64,000 nucleotides of DNA from a virus (IMGVR_UViG_3300025030_000046:75240-139239); one strand, 5' to 3'; shown: positions 42,847-59,670, counted from the stretch's first letter. The notes: generated by a model not told the origin, from the sequence alone. Translations and numbers: made by a program.

Positions 42847-45800
42847 ATGGCAGACAATCTCGATATAATTATTAATGCGAAACTAAATACAACTCAAACA
42901 ACTCAAACCGCCAGAAAACAAATAAAGCAAGTTGAAGCAGAAATAAATAAAACCCCAATGCAGCTACGTATTGAGTCAAGTACTGGAGTATTAAAAGCGC
43001 AAGCGGTTCAAGCTACTAAAGAATATAAAGCAATGTATTCAAACATTATTCGTGAACATGAAGGAATGCAAAAAGCAATATCTAAAACAGAATCTAACAC
43101 CAGAAATAGAATCCAACAAATAGAAAAAACACAATCTTCTGCTCAGAATAAAAACCTAGAACAACAATATGAGCAAAAACAAAAACTAATTCGCTTAGAG
43201 TTGGAGCAACAAGCCACAGCACAAAAAAGACTTGAAACTTTAAGATTGGAAGCTCAGGAATATATAAAGATAACTGCTGAAAAACTTAAAGGGTTATCTA
43301 CTAAATATAGTTATGGTAATCAATCCACATCTCAACAAATGCAAAAAGAATTAAATAATGGTATGCTTAATTTTAAGTCTATTGACAGTATCCCTGCAAA
43401 ATTACAGGTCTGGAAACAACAGATATCACAAATAGAAAATGAATTGAAAGCTAGCCATCAAAAAAATATAAACTTACTGAATGAGCAGATTGCAAAAGAG
43501 CAACAATCTGCGAGTAAGAAATTAACCAATGCTAAACTAATAGAGCAAGCACAGGGTAAGCAGGCTAATTTAATTGATGAGGGAATAAGATTAAGAAGGC
43601 TCGAAGGCGAACAACAGTCCTCATTATTGAGAAATCAAATGCAACAACAACAAGCAGAGAGACAAAGAACTTTTGAATTAGGACGTCAGATTGCTTTGTT
43701 TAAAGAACAAAAAGCTATCCAAATGCAAAATTTACAATCAACATATGGTAGCTCTTACAATAGTCCCAACGTAAGATCTCAGGTTTCGGGAGTTCAAAGC
43801 AGTATAGCAAACTTAAATGCGGGCAACTTTCATGAACAATCTGAACGGATAAATACTGATATAGGTCATATTCGTGCTAATTTAAACGAAGCGAGAGCTG
43901 CATCTAATAGTTTTGCAAATGACTTATTCCATAATGCCTATAAAATGTTACAGTGGGCTGCTGTTGGAACTGCTATATTCGGTACATGGAGGGCATTACA
44001 AGATGGTGTTCAATATATAACACAATTAGACACTGCACTTAACGAAATTAGAATAGTAACTGGAAAAACTCAATTAGAGGTAGAAAAACTTGCATCTAGC
44101 TATAATAATTTAGCAAAAGAAATGAGTGTAACTACAACAGAAATTGCTTCGACAGCCGTTAGTTTATACAGACAGGGTTTGTCGGAAGATAACATAAATG
44201 AACGTATGCAAGCAATTATAAAATATGCTAAGATATCGGGAATAAGCTTAAAAGAAGCTGATACTATTATTACAGCAAGTGCAAATGGAACGAAGGCGAG
44301 CGTTAATGAAATAATAGATGTATTTAGTTATTTAGGAGATGCTACGGCGACTGGAGCCGATGAGATAGGAAAAGCATTTCAAAGAAGTGCATCTGTAGCC
44401 TCTATAGCAGGAGTTGATTATAAAAAATTAGCATCTTATATTGCGGTAGTGTCTAGTACTACGAGAGTATCTGCTGAAACTATTGGTAATTCCATGCGAA
44501 GTTTGATGATACGATACCAAGCTATTAAAGAAAATGGATTTAACGCCGAAGATGCAACAAATATCAATCAAGTGACAAAAGCATTGGAGGACGTTAGTAA
44601 ACAAACAGGGTTTTCTATTAGTGCTATTGATAAAAGTAGCGGTATGCTTAGAAATTATACAGATGTACTTGATGATTTATCTAAAGTTTGGGATGATCTT
44701 AATCCTAAACAAAAAGCATATTTACAAACTGCGTTAGCGGGAAATTATCAGGGAGATAAATTCGCTGCCCTGATGGAGAACTACACGAGATCTATTGCAT
44801 TGTATGAGGGGTCATTAGTTTCAGCAGGAACGGCACAGGAAAAATTTAATATTTGGCAAGAAGGAACTCAGTCAAAACTCGATGGATTAAAAGCAGTATG
44901 GGAAGGCTTGACAAAGGCAGTATTAAATTCAGGGTTTTTTAAAGCAGTTATCAGTGGAGTAACAGGTATATTAGATGGTTTAAGCACATTGACTGGTCAA
45001 CTTTCATTGGCAGTATTTTCATTTACATTGCTTACAATAGCGGCTAAAGCATTCACAACTCAAATAACCGCTGCTTCTTTAGCAATTAAAGGATTTGTTG
45101 CTTCTGTACCAGTAATAGGTTGGATTGCTTTGGCTATTTCAGCTTTAATACCAGTAGTTCTTGGTTTCGCTAGTGCATCTAAACGGGCTAGAGAAGAGCA
45201 AGAGAAATTAAGTAAACAAACACTTGAAGAAGTTCAAACAAGTGTAAATAAATTAAATATAGATGAACAAAAAAGACGAAAATTAGATGAGTTAGTTAAG
45301 TCTTATGACGATTTAAAGAAAAGTTCTAAAGGGACTAAAGAAGAAGAAGATACGCTACATAGTTTACAAGTTAAAATGGTAGCATTGTATCCTAATCTTG
45401 CGGATGGAATTGATAGTGTTGGAGATGCCTATACTAATAATATCGAAAAAATAAGGAATTTCACTAAAGAACAAAAGAGTGCATATATTCAAGGGCTAGA
45501 TCAACAAAAACAGATTTTAGGCTTTAAGATGTCTGACTTTAAAATACAAGAATCTTCCTTGATACAGAAAAAAGCAACTATGCTACCAACCAAAAATAAA
45601 ATTTTAGACAGTTATGGTAATTTAAACAAGACTAGTTTTTCGGAAAATGAATTAAAAGATGTGGCTTTAGCATTAGGGTATAAAAGTGATTTCTGGAGTA
45701 CTGCCGATAGTAAGCTAATAAAGGAGCTTGGCGGAGATTATAATATTAAGACTATTAAAATGCAAGGTTATGGTAACGATCAAAAAACTTTAAACAAAGA

Positions 45801-48153
45801 TGCTATAAAAAGATTGGGAGATATTGCATATAATAAATATAGCGAAGTAGATAAGCAGTTGATAGATGTCCAAGGTCAAATTGAACAATTTAATAATCTT
45901 GATACAACTATTAAAGAATTACAAAATCCCAAAGCAAAAGCTAATAATAATGACAATATACCTAAAATCAATAATATTTATAATCAAGAAACCCTAAAAC
46001 AGTTACTTGATGCAGATAAAATTTCTTTATCAACATATGTATCTCAATTAGAAAAAATTAAAAAAGATAAATTTGGAAGTTTTATAGGTAAAGATGTTAA
46101 AGCATTAAATGCAATGCTATTAGATCCAAAAACTAAAGAAGAAACTGAGAAATATTTATCTTTAATGCAAGATATTAATGGTGCTAACAATAAAGATAAA
46201 AAAGGCTCCTCGACTGGTCAATCTTTTGATGAAAAATATGTTAAAGAATATAACGCAGAAGTTGACAAATCTGTAAACAAAATTAAGCATCTCACAAATG
46301 AATTAGATGTATTAAACGCATCAACATCTAATTACAGAGAAAAACATAAAAAAGTTAACGAAATTCTTGATGAACAGAAAAACAAACTTGAGAAAATACA
46401 TCTAGCATCCGAAAAGTTAAAAGGTAAAAAATCAGACTTAGAATCACAAATGATTGGTATAGGAATCAATCCAAACTGGTCAGAATCAAAAAAGAATAAC
46501 ATATTTGATTCTTGGGACAAAAACACAGATAAGAGAAAATTATTTAATGAACTGTATAAAGATTGGCAAGAAACAAGTAACGGAATTATACAGAATGATG
46601 ATGCTTATTTTAGTACAGTTAAAGAAATATTCGCTAACAGAAAACAACTAGTAGATAATCAAGTTAAACAAGTCGAGGATTATCAGTCTAAACGTATTGC
46701 TAAAAATGAACTTCTTTTAAAACAATCTCAAGGGCACCAATCATTATTGAAAGAAGGAACTCCAGAATACAGTAAAGAAATAGACGTACAAGTTAATCTG
46801 CATAAAGAAAAACAAAAAATATTAGAAGACGAAGCAGAAAGACTTAAAAAGATATTAGCAACAAACAAAAATTTAACCGAAGAAGACCGTAATCAAATTC
46901 AACAGAAAATTGATGCTAGGTCTAGTGGCTGGTGGGACGAAGAACAAAATATAAGTTCATTGATAAAAAAACGTCAGGAAGATGAGCTTAAATACGTAGA
47001 AGATGCTCAAAACGCAATGATGGATATCCGTAGAAAAGCTGGCGAAGAAGAAAAGAGAATCTTAGAAAAAGATCTAAAAACATATACGGACAACATAGAT
47101 AAAAAAATAAAAGCTCTTGATGATTTAATTGATAAAGAAAACTATGATACTAGTATTCAAAATCAAGACAAAGATATAAACAAAAAGCAAGCAGAAATAG
47201 ATGCTTTAGCTCTCGATAATTCTGCTGAAGGATTAGCACGAAAAGCTCAATTAGAAATGGATTTAGCTGATTTAAAATCTAAAAAAGATGATGATATACG
47301 CAAGCATAGTCAAGACGAAGAAAAAAAGACGTTGCAGAATTTAAAAGACGTAGAAAGTAAAAAAGTTGAAGAGAAAAAATCTGCAATTGATGAACAATTA
47401 AGCGATGCTAAATTATTTAATACCGTTCAATTAGAATTAACTAACTCAACAGTAGATCAGATAATTGACGAGTATGAAAAAATGGCAAAAGCAGTTGGTG
47501 GAAATTATGACACCATGATAGAAAAGGCTAAGTTTTTCAATACGATTTCAGCAGCTAAAAAAGTCGTTAACGATGAGTCGTCTGCATACCACAACCCTAC
47601 TGACATTACAAAGGATTATAATGAAGCCTCTGGAAAAGATGTAAACGGAAAATTAATTGATAAAATAATTAGCTTAAAAGAACAGTACGAAAAAGCAACT
47701 ACTGCATCTCAGCGTACCTCAATACGTGGAGAAGCTGATTCTATCAGAACTCAATTGCCTTCCGATGTAGCACAAAGGACTAGCGAATTAAATACTGAAG
47801 AGCTAAAAAAATATAAAGAAGACATTAAAAATAGAGTATACAAAAATGGCGGGCTAGTTGACTTTACTGGCGCAGCATGGCTAGACGGTAGCAAAAGCAA
47901 TCCAGAATATGTATTAAAGTCTATGGATTTTACAAATTTACTTAAAATAGTGGATATCACAAAAACTATAATGCCTATGATTAATACTAATATGCCTAAT
48001 TTAGCAAGTAATAATTCCAATAAAAATGTAACAGTCCAATCTACTGTAAATATTAATGGAATCCCATCAGAAAGCGTAGATGGATTACTTAAACGTATAA
48101 AATCCGAAGTTTGGACTGACATGTGGAGAAAATTAGCTATAGAAGGAAAGTAA
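42847..48153 (+). CDS. tail tape measure protein (TP901-like core)
   Basis: 1768 aa, helical; LDTALNEIRIVT...YRQG core; hydrophobic segment. Confidence 0.9.
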   Translation: MADNLDIIINAKLNTTQTTQTARKQIKQVEAEINKTPMQLRIESSTGVLKAQAVQATKEYKAMYSNIIREHEGMQKAISKTESNTRNRIQQIEKTQSSAQNKNLEQQYEQKQKLIRLELEQQATAQKRLETLRLEAQEYIKITAEKLKGLSTKYSYGNQSTSQQMQKELNNGMLNFKSIDSIPAKLQVWKQQISQIENELKASHQKNINLLNEQIAKEQQSASKKLTNAKLIEQAQGKQANLIDEGIRLRRLEGEQQSSLLRNQMQQQQAERQRTFELGRQIALFKEQKAIQMQNLQSTYGSSYNSPNVRSQVSGVQSSIANLNAGNFHEQSERINTDIGHIRANLNEARAASNSFANDLFHNAYKMLQWAAVGTAIFGTWRALQDGVQYITQLDTALNEIRIVTGKTQLEVEKLASSYNNLAKEMSVTTTEIASTAVSLYRQGLSEDNINERMQAIIKYAKISGISLKEADTIITASANGTKASVNEIIDVFSYLGDATATGADEIGKAFQRSASVASIAGVDYKKLASYIAVVSSTTRVSAETIGNSMRSLMIRYQAIKENGFNAEDATNINQVTKALEDVSKQTGFSISAIDKSSGMLRNYTDVLDDLSKVWDDLNPKQKAYLQTALAGNYQGDKFAALMENYTRSIALYEGSLVSAGTAQEKFNIWQEGTQSKLDGLKAVWEGLTKAVLNSGFFKAVISGVTGILDGLSTLTGQLSLAVFSFTLLTIAAKAFTTQITAASLAIKGFVASVPVIGWIALAISALIPVVLGFASASKRAREEQEKLSKQTLEEVQTSVNKLNIDEQKRRKLDELVKSYDDLKKSSKGTKEEEDTLHSLQVKMVALYPNLADGIDSVGDAYTNNIEKIRNFTKEQKSAYIQGLDQQKQILGFKMSDFKIQESSLIQKKATMLPTKNKILDSYGNLNKTSFSENELKDVALALGYKSDFWSTADSKLIKELGGDYNIKTIKMQGYGNDQKTLNKDAIKRLGDIAYNKYSEVDKQLIDVQGQIEQFNNLDTTIKELQNPKAKANNNDNIPKINNIYNQETLKQLLDADKISLSTYVSQLEKIKKDKFGSFIGKDVKALNAMLLDPKTKEETEKYLSLMQDINGANNKDKKGSSTGQSFDEKYVKEYNAEVDKSVNKIKHLTNELDVLNASTSNYREKHKKVNEILDEQKNKLEKIHLASEKLKGKKSDLESQMIGIGINPNWSESKKNNIFDSWDKNTDKRKLFNELYKDWQETSNGIIQNDDAYFSTVKEIFANRKQLVDNQVKQVEDYQSKRIAKNELLLKQSQGHQSLLKEGTPEYSKEIDVQVNLHKEKQKILEDEAERLKKILATNKNLTEEDRNQIQQKIDARSSGWWDEEQNISSLIKKRQEDELKYVEDAQNAMMDIRRKAGEEEKRILEKDLKTYTDNIDKKIKALDDLIDKENYDTSIQNQDKDINKKQAEIDALALDNSAEGLARKAQLEMDLADLKSKKDDDIRKHSQDEEKKTLQNLKDVESKKVEEKKSAIDEQLSDAKLFNTVQLELTNSTVDQIIDEYEKMAKAVGGNYDTMIEKAKFFNTISAAKKVVNDESSAYHNPTDITKDYNEASGKDVNGKLIDKIISLKEQYEKATTASQRTSIRGEADSIRTQLPSDVAQRTSELNTEELKKYKEDIKNRVYKNGGLVDFTGAAWLDGSKSNPEYVLKSMDFTNLLKIVDITKTIMPMINTNMPNLASNNSNKNVTVQSTVNINGIPSESVDGLLKRIKSEVWTDMWRKLAIEGK

Positions 48154-48193
48154 TTTATATAGCCCGTCTATTAATTTAGGTGGGTTATTCCCT

Positions 48194-49033
48194 TTGAAAA
48201 CAATAAATTTTACATATAAAAATAAAATAAGGAGGTGTATACAAATGTATCAAACAACTCTTTTTACTTTTGCTGACATCACAAGTGAGTCCATGGGAGT
48301 AACATTCTGTAGATATATAGATCAATCCATAAAAGATATATTTGTTTCTGGCAGAGATATCGTATCTGAAACTATCCAAAACAACAATAAATATCAAAAC
48401 TATCTCTATAAAATAAACAAAACCCCACACACATTCAAAATCGAATTATACCACGAAAACTTAGATAATGACAAGCAACGTGAAATTGCTAGATGGTTTT
48501 TCGATCAGCAAGATTATAAACCATTTATTCCTACAGATACAAACCGAGTTTATTATATATTAGTAACTGGCGAGCCAGAATTTACTACTAACGGAACATG
48601 TGGAATTATATCTTTTGATGTAACTACTCAAGATAGTTTTTCTTATAGCAATTGGTACACTCAAGTTTATGATCTTTCAACTAGCATTACAACTCAAGCA
48701 ATAACTATTGAAAATTTAGGAGATATAGAAATTTACCCATATATAAAATTAAAGGTGATAGAAAGTAATAGCACAATAACATTAACCAATTCAACAAACG
48801 CTGGAAAATTTATATCTTTCGGAACAAATTCCAGCAACCCATTAGTAGCAAATGAAAATATTGAAATAAATACTGATTCAGAAATTATATCAACTGACCA
48901 GTTAGGACTGTATAGATATAGTAATTTATTAAGTGGTTCTGAATTTTTTGGTTTAGTAAGAGGAAATAACAACATCAACGTGTCTGGAAAAGCTATTATT
49001 ACAATGTATTATCAGTACAAATATTTAATTTAA
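48194..49033 (+). CDS. distal tail protein (Dit); probable start at MYQTT (48245)
   Basis: Follows tape measure; IENLGD and LVRGNNNI motifs; AGGAGGTG RBS before the internal ATG. Confidence 0.75.
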   Translation: MKTINFTYKNKIRRCIQMYQTTLFTFADITSESMGVTFCRYIDQSIKDIFVSGRDIVSETIQNNNKYQNYLYKINKTPHTFKIELYHENLDNDKQREIARWFFDQQDYKPFIPTDTNRVYYILVTGEPEFTTNGTCGIISFDVTTQDSFSYSNWYTQVYDLSTSITTQAITIENLGDIEIYPYIKLKVIESNSTITLTNSTNAGKFISFGTNSSNPLVANENIEINTDSEIISTDQLGLYRYSNLLSGSEFFGLVRGNNNINVSGKAIITMYYQYKYLI

Positions 49034-49047
49034 GGAGGTGTTAACTT

Positions 49048-51156
49048 TTGGATAATATAAAAATAACCCTACATAAGCGTGACCGCACAATGGTCTATAA
49101 TCTTTATGACATAATTAATCCAGTATACATCGAAGTTTATGGAGGAATTAACACTCTTGATTTTAGCATTCCTTATACTTGCCCTGATTTTTTAACTCAT
49201 GAAATGATAGACAATCCAGCGATTAGTTTAATTAAACCTTTTTATTTAGTAAAATTTAACGATGAGTGGTTTATTATAGATAAAGTTGATAAGATATCGG
49301 ACGATAAAAGTGTTCTTAATATAAAAACTCATTCGTTAGGATATGAACTAAAAAATAAAAATATAAGAGGATTTAAAACTGGAATTGTTGATAATCCTGT
49401 AAAAAATTTAACAGACACAATGAATTTAATATTGGTTAATACAAACTGGTCGGTAGACCACGTAGATGTTTCTCTCGATTTACTATATAGAGCCATTGAA
49501 ATATCTGATAAATCAGTATTGGATGCAATAATTAATGATGTGTGTATTAAGTGGGATTGTGTCCCTAAGTTTTCGACAGAAACCAGAAAGATGTCATTCG
49601 TTAATTATAAAACAGATGGTTTGGATTTAGGATTATATATATCTGAAAATAAGTACCTAAAGAACATACAATTTGAAATGGAAGAAGATTCAATTTGCAC
49701 CAAGCTTAAAATATTCGGGAAAAACAACATTAGCATAAACCAAGTGAATCCAAGTGGTCAAAATTACATTAGTGATTTCAGTTATTTCAAGCAAGATGGA
49801 TATATGACTTCGGGATTAAAAACAGCTCTTGAAAATTATGAAACAGCTATAAGTAATAATCAAACAACTTTTCAGAATTATGTATCTCAGAAAACAACTT
49901 TGCAAACTCAGCTCTCAGATAAAGAACATGAACTAGATGTTTATATAACAGATTCAACATTGGGACTTAATGCAATACAGCAAGCTAAAGATATTGCAAT
50001 AAGTAATGGTCAAGATATAAATGCTACTCAAACTACAATTGAGAATGGAATATTACAATCAGCAACTTTAAACACCGCGGTGTTGAGTACTAATACATTG
50101 AGTGATAGAGATGATTATTATAACGGTTGTAGTATAACTATTACTTCTGGAGCTGGCGTAGGTCAAACTAAGACTATTACTGATTATGTTGCAAGTAGTA
50201 AGACTATAATCGTGAATAGTAATTGGTCGACAATACCTAATAATACTTCAATGTACAATATAACCAATTCTTCTATTTTAGCTGAAGAAACTAGAAGACA
50301 GAATGTGGTTAATACAATCCAAGATGAGGTAGATTATATAGCTTTGCAAATTAGTGATATTGATGATGATATTTCAACACTTAGAAACTCTATAGATATT
50401 TCAACTTACTTAACTTCAGACCAATTAGAGGAATTGAATGATTGGACTATTGAAAAGGTTTATACAGATACCGCTATTACAGAACAAGGTGATTCACTAG
50501 ATGTTTTGCAGCAATTATTGACTGAAGCTCAAAAGCAATTATCATTACAAAACCAACCAAGATTTAATGCTACCGTTGATGTAGTTGATTTTTGTCAGGC
50601 AGTAAATGTTGATATTTCAGAAAAAGATAGATTAAAAATTGGTAGCATAGTAATGGTAAGACATTCAAAATTGAATATAGATTTAGTTTGTAAGATTATA
50701 GAGATTGAGCGTGATTATTTTAATTATAAAATTACAATAAAAATTGCTAATGAGAAAAGTATTAAGAATGGATTTACTCTTATAAAAGATATCTTGAAAA
50801 ATGTTTCTACTACTAGTGCTTTTTTATCTTTGAATTCTGATTTGTGGTCTAATGGTGGATCTGCAAATGATTTGATATCAGGTTTCTTGAATAATAGCAT
50901 GGATGCCACTAAACAAATGATAACTGCTGGAGTAAATAATGAAGTTCAGATTAATAATAGGGGAATAACTATTGTTGATCCTACTGAACCTCAATATGTG
51001 CAGCGGTTCGTATGTGGCTCTTGGGGTCTCAGCGAGGATTTTGGAAACTCATTCTCCATCGGAGCAAGCAAAGGGGTCATTCACGGAGAAATCATCAGTG
51101 GCAAAATTTACCTAAAATCCAAAGGCAAGTTTTCATCCGTTAAATATAAAATATAA
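49048..51156 (+). CDS. tail endopeptidase/Tal (N-terminal part of a split tail-tip protein)
   Basis: Prophage tail endopeptidase-like region, INQVNPSGQNYISDFSYF, coiled coil; ends abruptly in AT-rich repeats. Confidence 0.8.
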   Translation: MDNIKITLHKRDRTMVYNLYDIINPVYIEVYGGINTLDFSIPYTCPDFLTHEMIDNPAISLIKPFYLVKFNDEWFIIDKVDKISDDKSVLNIKTHSLGYELKNKNIRGFKTGIVDNPVKNLTDTMNLILVNTNWSVDHVDVSLDLLYRAIEISDKSVLDAIINDVCIKWDCVPKFSTETRKMSFVNYKTDGLDLGLYISENKYLKNIQFEMEEDSICTKLKIFGKNNISINQVNPSGQNYISDFSYFKQDGYMTSGLKTALENYETAISNNQTTFQNYVSQKTTLQTQLSDKEHELDVYITDSTLGLNAIQQAKDIAISNGQDINATQTTIENGILQSATLNTAVLSTNTLSDRDDYYNGCSITITSGAGVGQTKTITDYVASSKTIIVNSNWSTIPNNTSMYNITNSSILAEETRRQNVVNTIQDEVDYIALQISDIDDDISTLRNSIDISTYLTSDQLEELNDWTIEKVYTDTAITEQGDSLDVLQQLLTEAQKQLSLQNQPRFNATVDVVDFCQAVNVDISEKDRLKIGSIVMVRHSKLNIDLVCKIIEIERDYFNYKITIKIANEKSIKNGFTLIKDILKNVSTTSAFLSLNSDLWSNGGSANDLISGFLNNSMDATKQMITAGVNNEVQINNRGITIVDPTEPQYVQRFVCGSWGLSEDFGNSFSIGASKGVIHGEIISGKIYLKSKGKFSSVKYKI

Positions 51157-51249
51157 AATATAAAATTTCGCAAAGATAGACTGAGCTTAATTGCCTCAAT
51201 TGATAAGAGTGGATTTCATATCAACATTTATTAATATCATTAATATTTT

Positions 51250-51364
51250 CTCTTGACATGTATTAGTTTTATTGATAATATCAATATATAAAGAAATTTT
51301 ATATTGGTTAATTTTATGGTATAATTAAACAAAAAATGTTGATGAGGGATTTTAATGGCGGTAA
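51250..51364 (+). repeat. 115-bp near-identical direct repeat, copy 1 (copy 2 at 55883-55997): promoter, RBS and first codons of HTH gene
   Basis: One mismatch by eye. Confidence 0.9.
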
Positions 51365-51564
51365 AGAATAGACTAAAAGAAATATTATATAACAGAGGTA
51401 TAAAGCAAACTTGGTTAGCGGAACAAGTTAATATAACTCCGACAACATTAGGAAATATATTACACAATAGATATAACACCTCTTTGGAAGTAGCTCTTAA
51501 ACTAGCGTTTGTATTAAATTTAAAAGTTGAAGATATCTTTGAGTTGAGCGACAACATAAAATGA
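51355..51564 (+). CDS. XRE/Cro HTH regulator
   Basis: KQTWLAEQVNITPTTL and SLEVALKLA motifs. Confidence 0.85.
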   Translation: MAVKNRLKEILYNRGIKQTWLAEQVNITPTTLGNILHNRYNTSLEVALKLAFVLNLKVEDIFELSDNIK

Positions 51565-51586
51565 TGTATATTTTTTATAAAATATG

Positions 51587-51615
51587 TTGACACGCAACAT
51601 ATACTTCTATATAAT
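51587..51615 (+). promoter_or_regulatory. sigmaA promoter overlapped by palindrome ATGTTG-N5-CAACAT
   Basis: TTGACA-17-TATAAT. Confidence 0.7.
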
Positions 51616-51677
51616 CATATTGCGAGGTAAATTATGGTTTTAATTTAATCTCAAAATAATGTATAGGAGGTCTTGTA

Positions 51678-51989
51678 ATGTCTAGAGAAATAAAAGAAAT
51701 AAGTATTAATGAGTTTGAGAATGAATTTAAAACATCAGAAGGTAAGACAGTTAGTATAGACGTAAGGGGAAGTATAAGCTTTTTGAAGATAGTCAATGAT
51801 TTTGATATTTGGCAGGATGAAAATAAAATTGCTTTATGTGATTGTAATGACGAAAGTGAAGTTGGTATTCAGAAGCAAGACATTGTTTGCATTGTTCAAG
51901 ATGAAAGAATATCAAGTATTAAAACAGCCAACATATTCCTGAGAAATGGATTAGAAATAAATTTGCAGGAGGACGTAGATAATGAATAA
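51678..51989 (+). CDS. hypothetical protein, paralog of 56334..56642
   Basis: Obvious similarity KEISINEFENEF / KEITINELENDF and shared NGLEINLQ. Confidence 0.75.
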   Translation: MSREIKEISINEFENEFKTSEGKTVSIDVRGSISFLKIVNDFDIWQDENKIALCDCNDESEVGIQKQDIVCIVQDERISSIKTANIFLRNGLEINLQEDVDNE

Positions 51990-52782
51990 TTTAATATTAT
52001 TTAAAAGCGAAAAGTTCGAAAATACAACTTGTGATTTTTGGAGCAATAATAATGATGATATTTTTATGAGTATTATACAATTAGCAGAAGTATTAGGTTA
52101 TTCTAGTAAGAGTGGTATTGAAAACATCTTAAACAGAAATGAATATTTGAAGAATAATGAATTTTCAAGTACCCACAAATTGAATGTAGTTGAAGGTAAT
52201 CGTGAAGTATCAAGGAAAACAAGAGTTTTCACTGAAGATGGCATATATGAAGTAACTCTTCTAGCCAAAACAGAAAAAGCAAAGCAGTTTAGAAAATGGG
52301 TAAGAGATGTACTAAAAGGATTAAGAAAAGGTGAATTAAAATTAACTCAACAATTCAATTTACCAATTACCTATAAAGAAGCATTAGTTCAGTTACTTAC
52401 TACAATTGAGAAAAATGAAAAATTAGAGGAGCAAAATAAAGTACTTATTCCCAAAGCTGAAGGGTATGATATACTAATTGACGCTCATAATTTTCAAAAC
52501 TTTGGTGAGGTGGCTAAGTGCTTCGGGATCGGACGCAATTCATTATATTCTTTATTAAGAAGGGAAAAAATTCTCATGAATAACAATGTTCCATATCAGA
52601 AGTACTTAAATAATGATTATTTCTTAGTAAAGGAGGTTAGCATACTTCGTGGACAATATTATTTTAATGGCACTCAAACCTTCATCAAGCCAAAAGGATT
52701 AGATTTTTTGAAGAATTTGCTAAAAGAAAAAGGCTTCTGCGTCAACAGTTTAGCCCTCAACAAAAACAATGTAGCTATATAG
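51982..52782 (+). CDS. antirepressor: BRO-N plus KilA-C (ANT) domains
   Basis: FTEDGIYEV...KAKQFRKWV; LPITYKEAL; VAKCFGIGRN...PYQKY. Confidence 0.85.
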   Translation: MNNLILFKSEKFENTTCDFWSNNNDDIFMSIIQLAEVLGYSSKSGIENILNRNEYLKNNEFSSTHKLNVVEGNREVSRKTRVFTEDGIYEVTLLAKTEKAKQFRKWVRDVLKGLRKGELKLTQQFNLPITYKEALVQLLTTIEKNEKLEEQNKVLIPKAEGYDILIDAHNFQNFGEVAKCFGIGRNSLYSLLRREKILMNNNVPYQKYLNNDYFLVKEVSILRGQYYFNGTQTFIKPKGLDFLKNLLKEKGFCVNSLALNKNNVAI

Positions 52783-52805
52783 TAATATATATTTAAAAAT
52801 ATTTC

Positions 52806-52833
52806 AAGACCTTTTTATTTAAAGGTCTTTTTT
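52806..52833 (+). terminator. rho-independent terminator
   Basis: AAGACCTTT-loop-AAAGGTCTT plus T tract. Confidence 0.75.
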
Positions 52834-52864
52834 ATTATAATAAAATTTAAAGGAGGTGAGCTAA

Positions 52865-54598
52865 TTGAGTTTATATGTTTACAATTACACAAAAAACTTT
52901 GCTATTATCGGGGCTGACACAAGATTATGTGGGTTAAAAGATAATTCATATTATAAAATTCACGACAATGCTTGTAAGATTATTAACAAACACAATAAAG
53001 TATTCACTTTTGGTGGAGATTATTTTGCTACAAATATTCTTATTGACTTAATTAATAAATCCGATTATGACTATGCTGAATTATATAATATCTGTAATCA
53101 GTTAGATAACGAATACAATATTGACAAAGATATCTATTTTATAGAATTGACATGGGTTGCTTATGAAAATAATAGTTATGTTTTATATAATATTGCCACA
53201 TATAATAAATATAAAATAATTAGAAGTATTCCAGAAGATAACTATATGTCTAATTTCTTTGGTGGTATTGAAACAGAAAAAGCGATTGATTATTATAACA
53301 AAAATATTAATAATTTAAACCTTATAGATTTATACAAGGATATTTACAATTTTTGCTCAAATGAATATATTGGTGGAGATTTAATATTATATATACTCAA
53401 AGATGGTAAGTCTATTAAAACATACAAATATAATATTTCAGAAAAATGCTATAAAATAGTAGGAAATTCTGGAAAATTCAATAAAATTGAAATGTATAAT
53501 CCTACTACGAATTTACTTGATGTAGAGGTGGGTAACTATATTGGGCAGGATGGTTTAAGTAAGAGAGGTATAAAGATCAGTAATGGTTCATTTGAAATTT
53601 CTAAAGCTGCTGGAATTAGCAACGGCATAGAATTAAATCCTACTAATGGTTTAACTATAACTAGGAGTGACAATAAATTTAGGGGAACATTTAATGCAAC
53701 TGATTTAAACTTTGAAACTAGCTCAGATAATGGAAATACGTGGTCGAAAAGGTTCTACTATGATTCTACGGCTCAAAAACTTGTTGTCAATGGAATAATA
53801 GATGCTCAAGATTTCAAAATAAATGGAACAAGTATTTTGGGTGATAATAAGATATTATCTAATTATATAGAAACTTTAGTAGTAGGTAGTAATGTAATTA
53901 TGGGTGCAAACGCAACAATATCGTGGTCACAAATAACTAGTAAACCTACTATTCCAACATTGCCGAGCTATATTACTTCTACAAAAATTACATCTACCAC
54001 CATCGAAAGTCCAAGTATTACTGGTGGTACTATTACTGGAGGGAGTATAACATCTAATTCTACAATAAATGTGACAACTGATTTGAGGGTTGGTGATAAT
54101 ATTTATGTTGGAAATGAAAATACCCTCTTAGAAAAAAGCCTAGTATTCTACAATGGTGGTAACATGACTGGAATAGGGCTTGTTAGTAATGGCGATTTTC
54201 GTGTGGATGGTGATAAGAATCTTGCTTTAACGGCTTACGAAGGGAGTGTTCAGATGACTGCTATGGGATCCACTGGGAGTGTATATGTAACTGCATCTCA
54301 AAATATGGATATTTATGCTGTTGGAGATATATTATTGAGTTCTAATTCTTATTGTCATATTGATGGGAATTTAAAACATACGGGTTCAGATATAGGTTTT
54401 TTTGGTAAAGCTCCCACATTTCAACAAACCGCTGAGTTATTAGGGGATAAGCTTACAACTGAATCAGCAGACCTCACTTATGGTAGCACTGAGGTTTCTA
54501 TGTTAACTCACTTAAAGTCTGATGTAGGAAATTTGTATAATAAAGTTAATGGTATATTAAATAAATTAGCAGAATATGGGTTATTTAGCGTTAGTTAG
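52865..54598 (+). CDS. N-terminal proteasome-beta/HslV-like Ntn-hydrolase domain fused to tail-spike C-terminal part
   Basis: After Met removal S1, D17, R19, then K37 and GG motifs; residues beyond ~195 are beta-rich tail-spike sequence. Confidence 0.65.
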   Translation: MSLYVYNYTKNFAIIGADTRLCGLKDNSYYKIHDNACKIINKHNKVFTFGGDYFATNILIDLINKSDYDYAELYNICNQLDNEYNIDKDIYFIELTWVAYENNSYVLYNIATYNKYKIIRSIPEDNYMSNFFGGIETEKAIDYYNKNINNLNLIDLYKDIYNFCSNEYIGGDLILYILKDGKSIKTYKYNISEKCYKIVGNSGKFNKIEMYNPTTNLLDVEVGNYIGQDGLSKRGIKISNGSFEISKAAGISNGIELNPTNGLTITRSDNKFRGTFNATDLNFETSSDNGNTWSKRFYYDSTAQKLVVNGIIDAQDFKINGTSILGDNKILSNYIETLVVGSNVIMGANATISWSQITSKPTIPTLPSYITSTKITSTTIESPSITGGTITGGSITSNSTINVTTDLRVGDNIYVGNENTLLEKSLVFYNGGNMTGIGLVSNGDFRVDGDKNLALTAYEGSVQMTAMGSTGSVYVTASQNMDIYAVGDILLSSNSYCHIDGNLKHTGSDIGFFGKAPTFQQTAELLGDKLTTESADLTYGSTEVSMLTHLKSDVGNLYNKVNGILNKLAEYGLFSVS

Positions 54599-54625
54599 AA
54601 AGGGATATTTTATAAAATATCCCTT
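54599..54625. terminator. bidirectional hairpin between convergent genes
   Basis: AAAGGGATATTT-TATA-AAATATCCCTT. Confidence 0.65.
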
Positions 54626-55323
54626 CATTTTAGTAATGGTAAAATATTTTGAATATAATAATCATATGGAATGTAGCGTCCATCACTTTTTTGATCAATG
54701 TATTGTATATTATCTAACAATAAACTTCCCTTTCGAAGTTCATGCATTTTACTAAAAGATTTAGATATAACATTTGCTGATATGTTTTTATCTTTCAATG
54801 TTTTATATTCTGCTGCAATTTGTACTAAATCAACTTTACGTAGACTCATATTATTTTCTCTTATTTCTATATCATAACGACAGACATCTTTTTCATTATA
54901 TTTTTCTGATATAAACGAAATAGGGATATATTGGTCGTTGTCAATATAGACTATTGGCAATCCGTCAGAAGTTTTAGGAACATTCTTATGATACTTTTGT
55001 TCTTGAGGGCTAAGAGATTTAATATCTATTTCTACTACTTCAGCTTTTGCTTCTTCATATACGCCTTGAGTTACTGTAGTTATCTCTATTTGATTATCAA
55101 CTTGATTAAATACTACTTTACTGCCTAACGCTTTTCCAACATCAGCTAATTTTAAATAAGTGTAATCATCTATGTTGTATGCCTCAACATTTGCCTTTGT
55201 TCCATTGATAAGTACAGGATATGAATTTAATTTAATGTTTAATTCATTAGCAGCGAATACAGCTCCCGAGAATAGCGTTGTCCCAGTTAAAACCCCTAAG
55301 ATAAATTGTTTGTATTTATTCAT
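54625..55323 (-). CDS. secreted protein with copper-amine-oxidase-N-like (stalk) domain
   Basis: Signal peptide MNKYKQFILGVLTG...VFA; NIDDYTYLKLADVGKALG motif. Confidence 0.7.
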   Translation of the reverse strand: MNKYKQFILGVLTGTTLFSGAVFAANELNIKLNSYPVLINGTKANVEAYNIDDYTYLKLADVGKALGSKVVFNQVDNQIEITTVTQGVYEEAKAEVVEIDIKSLSPQEQKYHKNVPKTSDGLPIVYIDNDQYIPISFISEKYNEKDVCRYDIEIRENNMSLRKVDLVQIAAEYKTLKDKNISANVISKSFSKMHELRKGSLLLDNIQYIDQKSDGRYIPYDYYIQNILPLLK

Positions 55324-55556
55324 TATAATTCCTCCAAAATTGTATAGTTGTAGTTTAACCTACTATAATTATACTATACTTCTTTTGGAGGAATTTGTAA
55401 ACATATAGAACTAAAATATAATAAGAAAGGAAGTGGTAGTATGGAAGACAATAAAAATGTAGTTGCCCAAAATAATGAGCAACTTTCTGCAAATACAATA
55501 AGCGGAATTTTAGATATTACAGTTATGCAACAAATACAAATAGCATTAAAATAAAG

Positions 55557-55754
55557 TTATTTTAATGTGCCCGTATGTAATAGCATTATTCCGCATTTTT
55601 TACATCCTAGTAAATTTACTGGTAATCCCGATGTTGGATTGAACGAAGGTGGGTTTGAGTTGGTGTTAACCGTAGTTATAACATAAGATGTCGTTCCTTC
55701 TGGTGCATTAACTTTCGCTAATTCTTCTGTTTTACACATTGGACATGTAGCCAT
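55557..55754 (-). CDS. small zinc-ribbon protein
   Basis: CPMC...CKKCG; AGGAGG RBS. Confidence 0.65.
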   Translation of the reverse strand: MATCPMCKTEELAKVNAPEGTTSYVITTVNTNSNPPSFNPTSGLPVNLLGCKKCGIMLLHTGTLK

Positions 55755-55882
55755 TATTCTACCTCCTTTTAATTTATTTCCTTAATTATACAACAACAAA
55801 ATATTAATTTCTACAATTGTTTACAGTTTTAGGTAATATATGTGACATATTTTATTAGTATTATCAGTTTTATTAATATTTA

Positions 55883-55997
55883 CTCTTGACATATATTAGT
55901 TTTATTGATAATATCAATATATAAAGAAATTTTATATTGGTTAATTTTATGGTATAATTAAACAAAAAATGTTGATGAGGGATTTTAATGGCGGTAA
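55883..55997 (+). repeat. 115-bp direct repeat, copy 2
   Basis: Matches 51250-51364. Confidence 0.9.
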
Positions 55998-56215
55998 TAA
56001 TAATTAAGATGAAGATAAATGAAAAAATAGAAGCGTATAGAAGTGACACAGGTACTACTCGGAGTTGGGTAGCTAAACAAATGGGAATGTCTATACAGAG
56101 ATTAAATCAAATAGTCAATGGAAATAATATTACTTTAAAATTATTGATTAAATTTGCAACCTTTCTGCGTTGCGAAGTATCTGACTTATATGAATACAAT
56201 GTAACTAATTATTGA
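55988..56215 (+). CDS. XRE/Cro HTH regulator
   Basis: RSWVAKQMGMSIQRLNQI...FLRCEVSDL. Confidence 0.8.
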   Translation: MAVIIIKMKINEKIEAYRSDTGTTRSWVAKQMGMSIQRLNQIVNGNNITLKLLIKFATFLRCEVSDLYEYNVTNY

Positions 56216-56249
56216 AACAAAAACATTTCAATTATTTCAACCATATATA

Positions 56250-56278
56250 TTGACATTTTTTGAAACCTTTCGTATACT
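56250..56278 (+). promoter_or_regulatory. sigmaA promoter
   Basis: TTGACA-17-TATACT. Confidence 0.65.
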
Positions 56279-56333
56279 ATTAATGCAAGGTAGATTTTAC
56301 CTTATGCAAAATAATATATAGGAGGGTTTTATT

Positions 56334-56642
56334 GTGAGTAAAGTAAAAGAAATAACTATCAATGAGTTAGAAAATGATTTCATCAAATTAGAAGGCAAAT
56401 CAGTTTGTGTAGACATTAAAGGAGATATAAACTTCTTACAAGTAATAACTGGCTTTAATGTATGGCAGGATGAAAACAATATCACATTTTTTGATAATAA
56501 TAACGAAAGTGATTTCAATATCAAAAAATCAGCCATAACCTGTATTGTTCAAGATGACAGAATATCCGATTTTAAAGATACTCATATATTCCTGAAGAAT
56601 GGATTGGAAATCAATTTACAGGGGGACGTTGATCATGAATAA
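56334..56642 (+). CDS. hypothetical protein, paralog of 51678..51989
   Basis: Sequence similarity; GGAGG RBS. Confidence 0.75.
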   Translation: MSKVKEITINELENDFIKLEGKSVCVDIKGDINFLQVITGFNVWQDENNITFFDNNNESDFNIKKSAITCIVQDDRISDFKDTHIFLKNGLEINLQGDVDHE

Positions 56643-57453
56643 TTTATCTGTAGTCCAAATTAATAATCAAGATGTCAACATTAAGGAATACAATAACACC
56701 AGAGTTGTAACTTTTGAAGATATCGATATGCTTCATCGAAGACCAGAAGGAATATCTTATAGAAATTTTTGTAATCATAAAAAGCACTTTGTTGAAGGTA
56801 TAGATTATTTTAATTTCAAAGGTAATAATGGACGCAAAGCCTTGGCACAGGCTAACTTAGTAAATTTTACAAAGTTGAACAATAGTCCAAACTTCTCATT
56901 TTACTTAATCACTGAATCAGGATATTTAATGTTAGTAAAAAGTTTACAAGATGATTTAGCATGGGAAGTACAAAGACAATTAGTGAATGTATATTTTAAA
57001 GCAAAACAAATTCAGCAACCACAATATAATTTACCGACTACCTACAAAGAAGCACTAATACAATTACTTACAGTAGTCGAGGAGAAAGAAAAGATTGAAG
57101 AACAAAACAAAGTGCTTCTTCCCAAAGCTGAAGGATATGATGATTTTTTAAGTGCTAAGAATGCTCAAACAATGAACGAGTGTGCTAAAGTATTAAAAAT
57201 TGGACGCAATAAGCTATTTAGATTTTTACGGCAAAACGACATCTTAATGTCTGACAATTTACCGTATCAAAGATTTTGTGATAGTGAATATTTTACGGTT
57301 AGAGAAATTCATTTTATTAGAGGAAATTATGAGTACAATGGTTGTCAGTGCTTGGTTACAGCTAAAGGATTAGAGTTTATGCTAAAATTACTAAAAGAAA
57401 AAGGCTTCTGCGTCAACAGTTTAGCCCTTTCGAAAAACAATATAGCCATATAA
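56635..57453 (+). CDS. antirepressor: ORF6N plus KilA-C (ANT) domains
   Basis: RVVTFEDIDMLH...ITESGYLMLVKSLQDDLAWEVQRQLV; C terminus paralogous to 51982..52782. Confidence 0.85.
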   Translation: MNNLSVVQINNQDVNIKEYNNTRVVTFEDIDMLHRRPEGISYRNFCNHKKHFVEGIDYFNFKGNNGRKALAQANLVNFTKLNNSPNFSFYLITESGYLMLVKSLQDDLAWEVQRQLVNVYFKAKQIQQPQYNLPTTYKEALIQLLTVVEEKEKIEEQNKVLLPKAEGYDDFLSAKNAQTMNECAKVLKIGRNKLFRFLRQNDILMSDNLPYQRFCDSEYFTVREIHFIRGNYEYNGCQCLVTAKGLEFMLKLLKEKGFCVNSLALSKNNIAI

Positions 57454-57497
57454 TAACATATAACCAAAAATATTTCAAGAATTTTTTCGGTATCCTA

Positions 57498-57615
57498 TTG
57501 TAATTTAATTACAGTTTGATATAATAACAGCAGGTTAAGAACGCAACAAAATAAAAGGACGAGGTTTTACCCTCATCCCGCAGGTCAAGAACGCTTGTGC
57601 AGGGCGTTCTTTATC
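57498..57615 (+). ncRNA. putative type I antitoxin RNA with promoter and terminator, antisense to the 3' end of a small toxin ORF
   Basis: TTGTAA-16-TATAAT with TG extension; hairpin AAGAACGC...GCGTTCTTT at 57587-57612. Confidence 0.55.
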
Positions 57616-57689
57616 TTTATGTATTTCTCTACTATACATTCGGCATAGTAGATGATACACAAGACAGTTGTAACAACTATCATAATCAT
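57585..57689 (-). CDS. putative type I toxin (34-aa hydrophobic peptide with basic tail)
   Basis: MIMIVVTTVLCIIYYAECIVEKYIKIKNALHKRS; AGAGGT RBS. Confidence 0.55.
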   Translation of the reverse strand: MIMIVVTTVLCIIYYAECIVEKYIKIKNALHKRS

Positions 57690-57899
57690 TACCTCTCTTT
57701 TCTCTTGTATTAGGCACGAAGCCCATCACCAAAGACTTTCCCAATACGTTTGAATTAAGATGCACTTTTACAACCCGCTTGCATTATTTTACAACATTAT
57801 ACAAATAATTACAAGATGCATTTTCCAATAAACCCCACCCAGCAACAATATCCCTATTTACATAATTGAAAATATTTTACATTTTATCTTGAATAAGTC

Positions 57900-57927
57900 T
57901 TGACATGCTACTTTGCCATGGTATAAT
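57900..57927 (+). promoter_or_regulatory. sigmaA promoter of the type III TA operon
   Basis: TTGACA-16-TATAAT with TG extension. Confidence 0.75.
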
Positions 57928-57954
57928 TAAATTGTAGACAGAATAAAATATCTT

Positions 57955-58065
57955 ATGTAGTTCAAATAATTGTCGGGACTATGTATCGACATAAACAAAA
58001 GGCATAGGTTCAAATAATTTCCGCAACCTAGAAAGCGGCTAATAAAAGACTAGGGTTCAAATAAT
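57955..58065 (+). ncRNA. cptI: type III antitoxin RNA (CptI-like), ~2.3 repeats of 47-48 nt
   Basis: GTTCAAATAAT at 57960, 58008 and 58055; each full unit forms an H-type pseudoknot. Confidence 0.8.
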
Positions 58066-58109: not shown

Positions 58110-58640
58110 ATGAATTCAGGATACTTTTACTTTATTCATGATGATTACTATAATAAATTTGAAGGTATGGGATTATTAGAAAACAAAGAAATAGTTAATG
58201 GGAAGCTTCATGGTAGACCTTGCTATTATGCTTTTAAAGAAGATAATTCAGATATATATTGGATGATTCCCGTTTCATCAAAGATTGACAAATATAAACG
58301 AGAATACGAAAAAGCAATTAGTAAGTATAAAATATGTGATGGAATTAGTTTTGGATATATTCTTGGTGAGAAAACAGCATTTTTAATACAAAATATGTGT
58401 CCAGTAACCGATCAATACATAACCAATGTTTATATTGATAAAAATACATCTAACCCTATAACTATTCCTCAAAAATTAAAATCAGAGTTAAATTCTAAAA
58501 TAAGAAAAACCATAAGGTTATATCGCAAGGGTATTAGAATAGTGTTGTCTATGGCTTTAGAAATAGAAAAAATATTATTAGATGAAATTATATTAGAACA
58601 AACGGCAGCCACTTCAGAGCCAAATAGCACTGTAGATTAA
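58110..58640 (+). CDS. cptN: type III toxin-antitoxin endoribonuclease, CptN family
   Basis: FYFIHDDYY, RPCYY, IYWMIPVSSKIDKY, AFLIQNMCPV; upstream repeat and terminator architecture. Confidence 0.85.
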   Translation: MNSGYFYFIHDDYYNKFEGMGLLENKEIVNGKLHGRPCYYAFKEDNSDIYWMIPVSSKIDKYKREYEKAISKYKICDGISFGYILGEKTAFLIQNMCPVTDQYITNVYIDKNTSNPITIPQKLKSELNSKIRKTIRLYRKGIRIVLSMALEIEKILLDEIILEQTAATSEPNSTVD

Positions 58641-58809: not shown

Positions 58810-59670
58810 ATGAGTATAGATAAAAAAAGATTACTTGAATTGATTACTCAGGATAAAGTGCTTAAATATAATAATAAACAAAGAGTTTTACCAAATACGA
58901 GTACAAGTGATGATGAATTTGTCAGTTCTCAATTAAACGATACTCTTGGACAATCAAAAAATTCAATAAGTAATTATACTTTGGAAAAAACAATACCTTT
59001 CGTATTATGGAATGATTCATGGAATAATTATGGTGTATTTGGATTAAAATCAAATGAAAAGAAACAATATTGGAGATATTCAGGCGGACAAATAGTGCAT
59101 GTTGATTTTGGATGTGGAAATATAAAAACAGAACTGTCATTTCCACATCCTGCAATTATTTTATATAACTTTGCACAAACAGCGATTGTGATTCCAATAA
59201 CTACTGATGACAAAAAAACAGCGTTTGACGATGAAATAGAGAACGTTATAATTAAGGTTAAAAGTAAAGAAAATTCAATCCCAAATGATTCAATAATTAA
59301 CATTCACCAATTAAAAGCAATACATAAAGAAAGAATTATAAATAAATTAAAGTATAATGTTAAAAAATATATAGTTGATGATCAAGAAATTAAAAGGTTG
59401 AACAGCAGAATAGATATAGAATCTTTCAAAACAAATATGAGTCTATGGGAATGCATTCAACTAAAATATGCGCTTATGTTTAATAGAACATTATATGATG
59501 AAAAAATTAAATTATTTAAAGAACATAGCCATCTGATTCAGCATATAAATGATATAGAAGGAATGTTGGTTAACCTTGAAAAAAATAATTCAGACTACAT
59601 TAATGAAATTAGGCTAAAAATTGAAGAAATCAAAAAAATAGCATTGACTTCTGAAATGAAAAGAGTATAA
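58810..59670 (+). CDS. PemK/MazF-fold endoribonuclease-like protein with N- and C-terminal extensions
   Basis: GQIVHVDFG...ELSFPHPAIIL...IVIPITT...QLKAIHKERI. Confidence 0.7.
   Translation: MSIDKKRLLELITQDKVLKYNNKQRVLPNTSTSDDEFVSSQLNDTLGQSKNSISNYTLEKTIPFVLWNDSWNNYGVFGLKSNEKKQYWRYSGGQIVHVDFGCGNIKTELSFPHPAIILYNFAQTAIVIPITTDDKKTAFDDEIENVIIKVKSKENSIPNDSIINIHQLKAIHKERIINKLKYNVKKYIVDDQEIKRLNSRIDIESFKTNMSLWECIQLKYALMFNRTLYDEKIKLFKEHSHLIQHINDIEGMLVNLEKNNSDYINEIRLKIEEIKKIALTSEMKRV

Follow-up and report, generated by a model that had tools for sequence, protein, structure and literature searches.

The window described here is the whole of a 64,000-nucleotide (nt) stretch of viral DNA (IMGVR_UViG_3300025030_000046:75240-139239), a low-GC segment at the right-hand end of a 139-kb IMG/VR virus record. 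Its tail genes run in the order tape measure, Dit and Tal-N, and Tal-N therefore occupies the position expected of the tail-tip (Tal) gene. Tal-N encodes the N-terminal half of a Tal protein; the distal, fiber-like C-terminal half (Tal-C) is encoded by a second open reading frame (ORF) that begins after a gap of 1708 nt and is referred to below as the fiber ORF (positions 52865-54598, 577 aa). The fiber ORF has a TTG start codon, with a GGAGGTG ribosome-binding site upstream, and its 5′ stretch is AT-rich (GC of 0.22-0.25 versus 0.27-0.36 on either side). Between its start and Tal-C, it encodes a domain with a predicted proteasome-beta-like Ser-Ntn fold. Every item that an earlier, sequence-only reading of this locus had described was found where that reading had placed it. 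The features of the split gene and of its upstream neighbors are the following.

42847-48153: tape measure gene
48194-49033: Dit gene (PF22768, phrog_33)
49048-51156, + strand: Tal-N, N-terminal half of the tail-tip protein, 702 aa (PF24049, phrog_6211)
51109-51144, + strand: junction strand, copy 1, Tal-N residues 688-699, YLKSKGKFSSVK (from alignment to the uninterrupted Tal protein P0005)
52865-53452, + strand: predicted proteasome-beta-like Ser-Ntn domain, residues 1-196 of the fiber protein, with Ser2 as the putative nucleophile
53456-53491, + strand: junction strand, copy 2, fiber residues 198-209, IVGNSGKFNKIE, within a predicted flexible hinge
53456-54598, + strand: Tal-C, fiber residues 198-577, C-terminal (distal, fiber-like) half of the tail-tip protein (from homology to uninterrupted Tal)

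Colinear halves of a split Tal gene

Tal-N, which terminates in ...GKIYLKSKGKFSSVKYKI before its stop codon, matched PF24049 (YOMG_N; E = 3.9e-14) and phrog_6211, annotated as "minor tail protein" (E = 3.1e-114). The latter match covered only positions 16-631 of the 1168 in the profile, which was the first sign that Tal-N is half a gene. Indeed, Tal-N aligned to residues 4-609 of P0005 (954 aa), and residues 198-534 of the fiber protein aligned to residues 598-936 of the same protein with 38% identity. The uninterrupted homologs that aligned to both halves are 916-954 aa long. A search with the 577-aa fiber ORF returned 49 hits, many of which are proteins of 870-994 aa that carry both PF24049 and PF06605. 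Uninterrupted Tal (PF24049/PF06605, phrog_6211), which is homologous to both halves in the window and at closest 38-49% identical, is a single polypeptide of 870-2219 aa that has neither an Ntn domain nor an endonuclease gene. The comparison is sharpest for one pair of split and unsplit proteins: residues 210-536 of the Ntn-headed fiber P0010 are 88% identical to residues 609-935 of the uninterrupted, 1100-aa Tal of locus L029, and the similarity ends abruptly at the junction.

The two halves overlap by 12 residues when aligned to P0004, P0005 or P0019, and this holds for the window and for its relative L003 alike; the halves of locus L021 overlap by 7 residues on P0023. In the window, the overlap consists of Tal-N residues 688-699 and fiber residues 198-209, of which 3/12 and 9/12, respectively, are identical to residues 598-609 of P0005. 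The sequence-only reading had noticed a loose motif shared by the two junctions, and the alignments to the same 12 residues of all three uninterrupted proteins show this to be real homology, with the motif being, as judged from these alignments, one short Tal strand that is present twice. The strand is duplicated in the window, L003, L021 and Psychrobacillus phage Perkons. A recent target-site duplication was ruled out as its source, as the two copies share only G-K-F (3/12). Among the 49 hits, no protein starts with the junction segment by itself; the segment either follows an Ntn domain or lies within an uninterrupted Tal, near residue 600. Relatives that lack the domain and still encode two proteins, an arrangement at odds with the sequence-only reading, were not found either: none of these hits was split at the junction without an Ntn domain.

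Searches for known splicing elements were negative. A scan of positions 48000-58000 of the window and of six related loci against Rfam gave no match to group I or II introns or to other families, and an intron was rejected on this basis; the Hint/intein family was absent from Pfam scans of both halves. From the alignments, the Tal gene is thus best described as broken into colinear halves by an insertion, which bears out the earlier suggestion that an essential virion gene had been split in this way.

The Ser-Ntn domain at the head of the distal half

The AlphaFold2 model of the domain had a predicted local distance difference test (pLDDT) score of 95.2 and a predicted TM score of 0.90. In a Foldseek search of the PDB, all top hits were 20S proteasome beta subunits (E = 1.3e-8, TM score of 0.66). 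VIA-align gave Z scores of 19.4-16 for beta subunits, the best with a root mean square deviation of 2.6 over 174 residues, followed by Anbu (18.0), HslV (14.6), BPH (14.0) and connectase (12.0). Residue 2 of the model superposes on residue 1 of mature beta5i, HslV, Anbu and connectase, and the model has helices at residues 53-65 and 70-84, in the position of H1 and H2, as in the alpha-beta-beta-alpha sandwich of beta subunits, which has helices H1-H4. A profile of the 81-member family matched proteasome beta-6 (8adn_L, E = 3e-5) over positions 5-190, with D, K and G in matching columns.

In the 81-sequence alignment, whose members are 21-35% identical to the query with the exception of one close relative, S2, K38, G51 and G170 are invariant, and at least 90% of the sequences share D18, Y108, G134, E167 and G171. 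D18, K38 and G51 are the apparent equivalents of Asp17, Lys33 and Gly47, which are named as the proteasome-like catalytic set in PMC8665760. The sequence-only reading had predicted a Ser-Ntn fold from the spacing S1, D17 and K37 (numbered after Met removal); the model, the structural matches and the family-wide conservation of these residues agree with it on both counts. We conclude from the model that the domain has a proteasome-beta-like Ser-Ntn fold with a conserved catalytic set, in which Ser2 is the putative nucleophile.

The likeness that the reading drew to both proteasome subunits and connectase held in part. The domain is closer to 20S beta subunits and Anbu, with Z scores of 18-19, than to connectase, for which the Z score of 12.0 compares with 19.4 for 20S beta and the alignment covers only 139 residues. 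Connectase, according to PMC8665760, lacks helices H1 and H2 and has a specific two-helix insertion; the modeled domain retains H1/H2. The domain thus appears to be beta-subunit-like rather than connectase-like.

The N-terminal position of the domain is a fixed feature of the family. With residues 1-200 as the query, phmmer matched 85 representative clusters (E up to 1e-3) among 1.84 billion representatives, and the domain was N-terminal in 85/85. M-S or L-S is the start of 82/90 sequences, and the remaining eight are apparently truncated or have an upstream mis-start followed by an internal M-S-L-C. In a sample of Bacilli-class genomes, 8/401 had a match to the domain. At L045 and L046, positions 10001-11107 hold an Ntn-headed protein of 215-368 aa that lies outside the tail module and is separated by a few small genes from terminase-sized and portal-like genes before it.

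Neither Pfam nor PHROGs includes a family for the Ntn domain. The window protein had no Pfam hit and did not reach the gathering score of PF00227, which was touched weakly by 2/81 relatives (best E = 0.0011). A phmmer search of the fiber ORF against PDB sequences gave a chance hit alone (E = 0.95). The top hits of a fold search of BFVD were stand-alone phage proteasome-like proteins, with no annotated fiber fusion among them. In tblastn searches of 50,697 phage records, the whole fiber ORF had 0 matches; P0080 likewise had none, and P0121 matched only Perkons. Literature searches for a prior description of the arrangement turned up a single sentence, in PMC8665760 (Fuchs, Alva and Lupas 2021), on FC4 (Firmicute cluster 4; representative WP_076223917.1), a cluster from Firmicutes with a phage-tail-like C terminus. 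FC4 is probably the Ntn family described here, the match being one of description; the cluster-member listing contained no accession tying the two together. For FC4, the paper offers no model, function or genomic context, and it makes no mention of a split Tal, a junction or an endonuclease.

The domain and both halves are under purifying selection. Between the window and L003, Tal-N is 90% identical and ends at the same residue, and the ratio of nonsynonymous to synonymous substitution rates (dN/dS) was 0.056 for the Ntn domain and 0.078 for Tal-N. For the last 30 residues of Tal-N the ratio was 0.061, with 3 amino-acid changes for 17 nucleotide changes. These low ratios indicate that both halves, the domain and the duplicated tail have been kept by selection.

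The gap between the halves

The split recurs. We found 14 split loci, and 13/14 have an endonuclease gene in the gap, compared to 0/5 uninterrupted-Tal loci with an endonuclease adjoining Tal. This tally used a hidden Markov model built from the same gap ORFs, and the independent identification of the endonuclease therefore rests on PHROG and Pfam matches. In the near relatives L003-L005, whose Tal-N is 90% identical to that of the window and stops at the same residue, the gap is occupied by a 389-aa ORF that matches the homing-endonuclease families phrog_559 (1.3e-90) and phrog_9084. Perkons has the "tail protein" ORF187, the 265-aa homing-endonuclease-like ORF186 and the "tail fiber" ORF185, which is headed by the Ntn domain; a term search of the Perkons paper (PMC13245101) found no mention of ORF185-ORF187. 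The Bacilli prophage L021 has the same gene order, with a short DUF559 remnant in the gap. The gap ORFs of L003, Perkons and L021 all have a PHROG homing-endonuclease match. A metagenome scan added 11 loci, in which the order Tal-N, endonuclease and Ntn-fiber was found in 10/10 with upstream sequence; the eleventh, L035, begins within the endonuclease ORF. All 10/10 metagenome gap ORFs matched phrog_12131, "homing endonuclease" (E = 2.4e-14 to 4e-51), and Pfam matches in the gap ORFs were to DUF7487 and MTES_1575/DUF559, a PD-(D/E)xK Vsr-like nuclease module. Recurrence at one Tal position, for which the sequence-only reading had proposed a survey together with a duplicated junction motif, was thus seen at 14 loci, and the junction strand was duplicated in the cases compared.

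The endonuclease stop codon is followed, after 0-19 nt, by the start of the Ntn ORF, the GGAGGTG site of which lies within the 3′ end of the endonuclease gene. The start codon varies (ATG, TTG, ATT, ATC or CTG), but in 14/14 split loci it precedes an AGT or AGC codon. ATT, ATC and CTG account for 8/14 (L021, L032, L036-L039, L041 and L042). The use of these rare start codons, always followed by a Ser codon, suggests that translation of the Ntn ORF re-initiates in a manner coupled to the endonuclease ORF.

Additional copies of the same endonuclease family are present elsewhere in L031 (17061-18056), L032 (3519-4649), L038 (11641-12323) and L040 (11778-12914), indicating that these genomes are rich in homing endonucleases. 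The L038 copy in the Tal gap is in two reading frames and is probably decaying.

Identities between pairs of loci are uneven along the array. L032 and L040 are 31% identical in Tal-N, 38% in the endonuclease, 59% in the Ntn domain and 27% in Tal-C; for L038 and L039, the values are 50% in Tal-N, 94% in the Ntn domain and 85% in Tal-C. The Ntn domain is thus often more conserved than its flanks, which fits either strong constraint or movement as a cassette. The L038-L039 pair gives a first hint that the endonuclease and Ntn domain may move together, independently of the flanks.

The window itself has no complete endonuclease gene in the gap, the content of which is as follows.

51157-51217, + strand: segment after the Tal-N stop codon that is common to L003; left border of the replaced region (from the L003 alignment)
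51228-52829, + strand: secondary cargo cassette with promoter repeat, HTH gene, small ORF, antirepressor gene and hairpin (Pfam/PHROG)
51355-51564: HTH gene, within the cassette
51678-51989: small ORF, within the cassette
51982-52782: Bro-N/KilAC antirepressor gene, within the cassette
52806-52829: terminator-like hairpin, at the end of the cassette
52847-52864, + strand: remnant of the 3′ end of a lost homing endonuclease gene, with the GGAGGTG ribosome-binding site and TAA

The window and L003 are alike for ~60 nt after the Tal-N stop codon and diverge from about column 118 of the alignment. Before the start of the fiber ORF in the window, only ~18 nt can be matched to the 3′ end of the endonuclease ORF of L003, and the relatives have the same ribosome-binding site and stop-then-start layout. 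The alignments thus identify the window as the exception, in which an HTH/antirepressor cassette replaced the endonuclease and an ~18-nt 3′ remnant was left. A diverged second copy of the cassette lies 4.6 kb downstream, at 55861-57487, and is 72-96% identical in blocks to the first (compared over 51228-52816), with 96% for the promoter region and 72-79% for the others. The N-terminal domains of the antirepressors are swapped, Bro-N being present in copy 1 and ORF6N in copy 2. L003-L005 carry only the downstream copy, with the HTH/antirepressor cassette 3′ of the fiber gene. The sequence-only reading had suggested that cargo genes could in this way sit inside an essential gene. By the comparison, the split does not serve the regulatory cargo: what normally fills the gap is a homing endonuclease gene, for which the HTH/antirepressor cassette is a secondary substitute specific to the phage in the window.

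The neighborhood has several other features. Directly 5′ of the tape measure gene, at an unusual site for an integrase, lies a tyrosine-recombinase ORF (41673-42704; Phage_integrase, E = 1.4e-14). The fiber gene is followed by a terminator-like hairpin (54600-54625, + strand). Directly 3′ of the fiber gene and opposite to the tail genes is a 232-aa ORF (54625-55323, - strand) that encodes a domain like the one at the N terminus of copper amine oxidases (PF07833, E = 1.9e-6). Between the fiber gene and the next virion gene are a ToxN-like ORF (58110-58640; PF13958, E = 9.5e-4, which is under the Pfam cut-off) and, adjoining it, a 286-aa ORF with a PemK/MazF-like domain (58810-59670). A 25-nt direct repeat in two copies (57994-58065) lies 5′ of the ToxN-like ORF, and TRF detected no tandem array upstream of that ORF. 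A 1238-aa ORF (60219-63935) matches the virion-structural families phrog_13022 and phrog_23208, suggesting that the tail module resumes after ~5.6 kb of cargo.

How the distal half may be held at the tail tip

We propose that an ancestral Tal of ~950-1100 aa was broken at a conserved site, at about residue 600-610 of the uninterrupted homologs, by an element of two parts: a free-standing Vsr/DUF559-type homing endonuclease gene and a Ser-Ntn domain of ~195 aa that became fused in frame to the downstream half. The products would be two polypeptides, Tal-N, which ends past a short beta-strand, and Ntn-Tal-C, which repeats the strand behind the Ntn domain and whose N-terminal Ser would be freed by Met removal. 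On balance, and by no great distance, we think it probable that the Ntn domain serves to re-attach the distal half to the tail tip, covalently or not. The N-terminal end of a tail fiber usually docks to the tail, and enzymes are usually distal. From its position, we infer that the domain lies at the normal fiber-docking end and exactly where a broken Tal would need reconnecting. The C-terminal half has no other docking module; Tal homology resumes after a short hinge. Moreover, the nucleophile of an Ntn enzyme has to be residue 1, so that a fiber with this domain must start a new polypeptide, and hence the domain would never be internal.

Within such a docking role, we favor a capture that depends on catalysis. 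The target of Ser2 would be the tail at the C terminus of Tal-N or of a different tip protein, and transfer of the acyl group to the Ser amino group would give a Tal-N-Ntn-Tal-C chain in which the domain is retained. The strict conservation of Ser2, Asp18 and Lys38 argues for chemistry, beyond shape. This chemistry would correspond to the first half-reaction shown for connectase (Fuchs et al. 2021, PMC7980362). In that reaction, the N-terminal residue of connectase attacks one of the substrate's peptide bonds, and the N-terminal fragment of the substrate becomes amide-linked to the amino group of the enzyme. Connectase also has a proteasome-like Ntn fold and an N-terminal Ser/Thr exposed by Met removal; it is archaeal and free-standing (PMC7980362), whereas the domain in the window is from a phage and is fused to its presumed cargo. 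Covalent joining through the N-terminal Ser, by connectase-like acyl transfer, with the endonuclease and Ntn domain forming a new, gene-healing class of mobile element, is advanced here by analogy and tentatively, as a proposal that may well prove wrong. Ligation, trans-splicing and self-removal of the domain, which the sequence-only reading had put forward, are hypothetical activities.

The arrangement has precedents at the level of the gene. In the fractured genes described by Dassa et al. 2009 (PMC2677866), two adjacent ORFs colinear with uninterrupted homologs likewise make up a conserved phage gene, with split inteins and a free-standing Vsr-related endonuclease between the halves. The 3′ end of that endonuclease overlaps and gives the start of the downstream part, and the endonuclease can later be lost, a stage to which the ~18-nt remnant in the window corresponds. 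Unlike those genes, the Tal locus has no intein (Hint) halves; an Ntn domain of ~195 aa heads the C-terminal part, the N-terminal part ends in a duplicated strand of only 12-18 aa, and the broken gene encodes a virion tail protein rather than an enzyme of DNA metabolism. In Aeromonas phage Aeh1, an endonuclease insertion also splits an essential gene, nrdA, with mobE as the insertion; tails derived from the insertion assemble the split NrdA with no RNA or protein splicing (Crona et al. 2010, PMC3045599). The tails there are short, whereas the addition at the Tal locus is an entire domain, folded, enzyme-like and conserved in its catalytic set.

Several observations weigh against re-attachment, and most of all against ligation, as the role of the domain. 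Ntn-fibers without a nearby Tal-N or an endonuclease of the same family were found at 14 loci (L008, L009, L022-L028 and L043-L047), several of which look like degraded or partial prophages or lie beside replication or regulatory genes; hence, the domain is not tied to this split. In "group 2" members, the point of fusion lies ~70 residues deeper in the Tal extension, and there is no junction strand. By these comparisons the domain is a general N-terminal head of certain tail fibers, with a range beyond patching this break. No conserved scissile motif is obvious in the Tal-N tails across loci, which end in ...KYKI, ...IIKL, ...IINF, ...NACI and ...QRME, and the KDPGA motif of connectase is absent from the Tal-N tail and from the linker after the domain. 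The fold is nearer to the proteolytic beta subunits than to connectase, and proteasome subunits are described as inactive when isolated from their assembly (PMC8665760). In the window, the fiber ORF lies 3′ of a terminator-like hairpin and has lost its coupling to an upstream gene, which bears on its expression. Lastly, the docking role, and above all its covalent chemistry, is something that we infer. Structure prediction does not tip the balance: in a monomer model of fiber residues 1-260, residues 197-203 had pLDDT values below 50, which has no bearing on docking, and a complex prediction of Tal-N residues 590-702 with fiber residues 1-240 (score 0.01, mark 0.32) counts neither for nor against binding.

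The strongest alternative, which we regard as possible if doubtful, is that the domain works as a hydrolase carried by the virion. As a peptidase or amidase, it would act either on the envelope of the host or, during assembly or infection, on a protein of the phage, with the halves held together by other means, for example the duplicated beta-strand. Tal proteins of Gram-positive phages often bear lytic domains, the catalytic set is invariant, the nearest structures are proteolytic beta subunits, and the domain is found in fiber genes outside the split-Tal context. A hydrolase would be expected at the distal end of a fiber rather than at its N terminus, though, and it would have no evident reason to lie exactly at the break point in 14 loci or to be joined to a C-terminal half that lacks an alternative docking module. 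The reported inactivity of isolated proteasome-like subunits (PMC8665760) tells against this possibility as well.

A simpler alternative strikes us as improbable, namely that the tail genes are merely modular, the Ntn-like domain being a purely structural adaptor that has lost its enzymatic function and the endonuclease residing in a convenient intergenic gap. Tail fiber modules are commonly shuffled, and the copies of the endonuclease family elsewhere in L031, L032, L038 and L040 are consistent with such a view. An inert adaptor would not, however, be expected to keep Ser2 and Lys38 invariant, and Asp18 in at least 90%, of the 81 divergent sequences, to remain N-terminal throughout, to retain its Ser codon even behind rare start codons, or to coincide with an endonuclease in the slot in 13/14 split versus 0/5 uninterrupted loci.

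Full trans-splicing, the strongest form of the suggestion made in the sequence-only reading, in which transpeptidation through the duplicated motif would excise the domain and leave a scarless Tal of ~1080 aa, as split inteins do, is very unlikely. In its favor are the duplicated strand in the window, L003, L021 and Perkons, a hinge at residues 197-203 that is predicted to be flexible and so possibly accessible, a gene layout that, with its homing endonuclease, is the one seen for split inteins in fractured genes (PMC2677866) and the ability of connectase to recombine two proteins with the same motif (PMC7980362). Against it, the second motif is in cis, without the free amino group required by the connectase ping-pong scheme (PMC7980362), the strand copies differ strongly (3/12 versus 9/12 identical to P0005), the loci show no conserved motif for cleavage, the strand is missing from group 2 members, and connectase is only a distant structural match whose signature features are absent.

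We return to re-attachment by the Ntn domain and to what it would mean. Should the domain turn out to be only an adaptor or a tail-tip peptidase, it would still be an unannotated domain, with no Pfam match, that heads many phage tail fibers. The locus also represents a third arrangement at fractured genes, beside split inteins and short interaction tails, that is recurrent in 14 loci and maintained by purifying selection. If the halves are joined covalently, the domain would act in the manner of a split intein on an unrelated fold, as a naturally occurring protein ligase that carries its cargo on the same chain; this would constitute a new natural protein-ligation system, of engineering interest like inteins, sortase and connectase, and would supply the first function for a proteasome-like family that has none. 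It would likewise provide mobile nucleases with a route by which to invade structural phage genes, and, were ligation to be demonstrated, the element would be of a categorically new kind.

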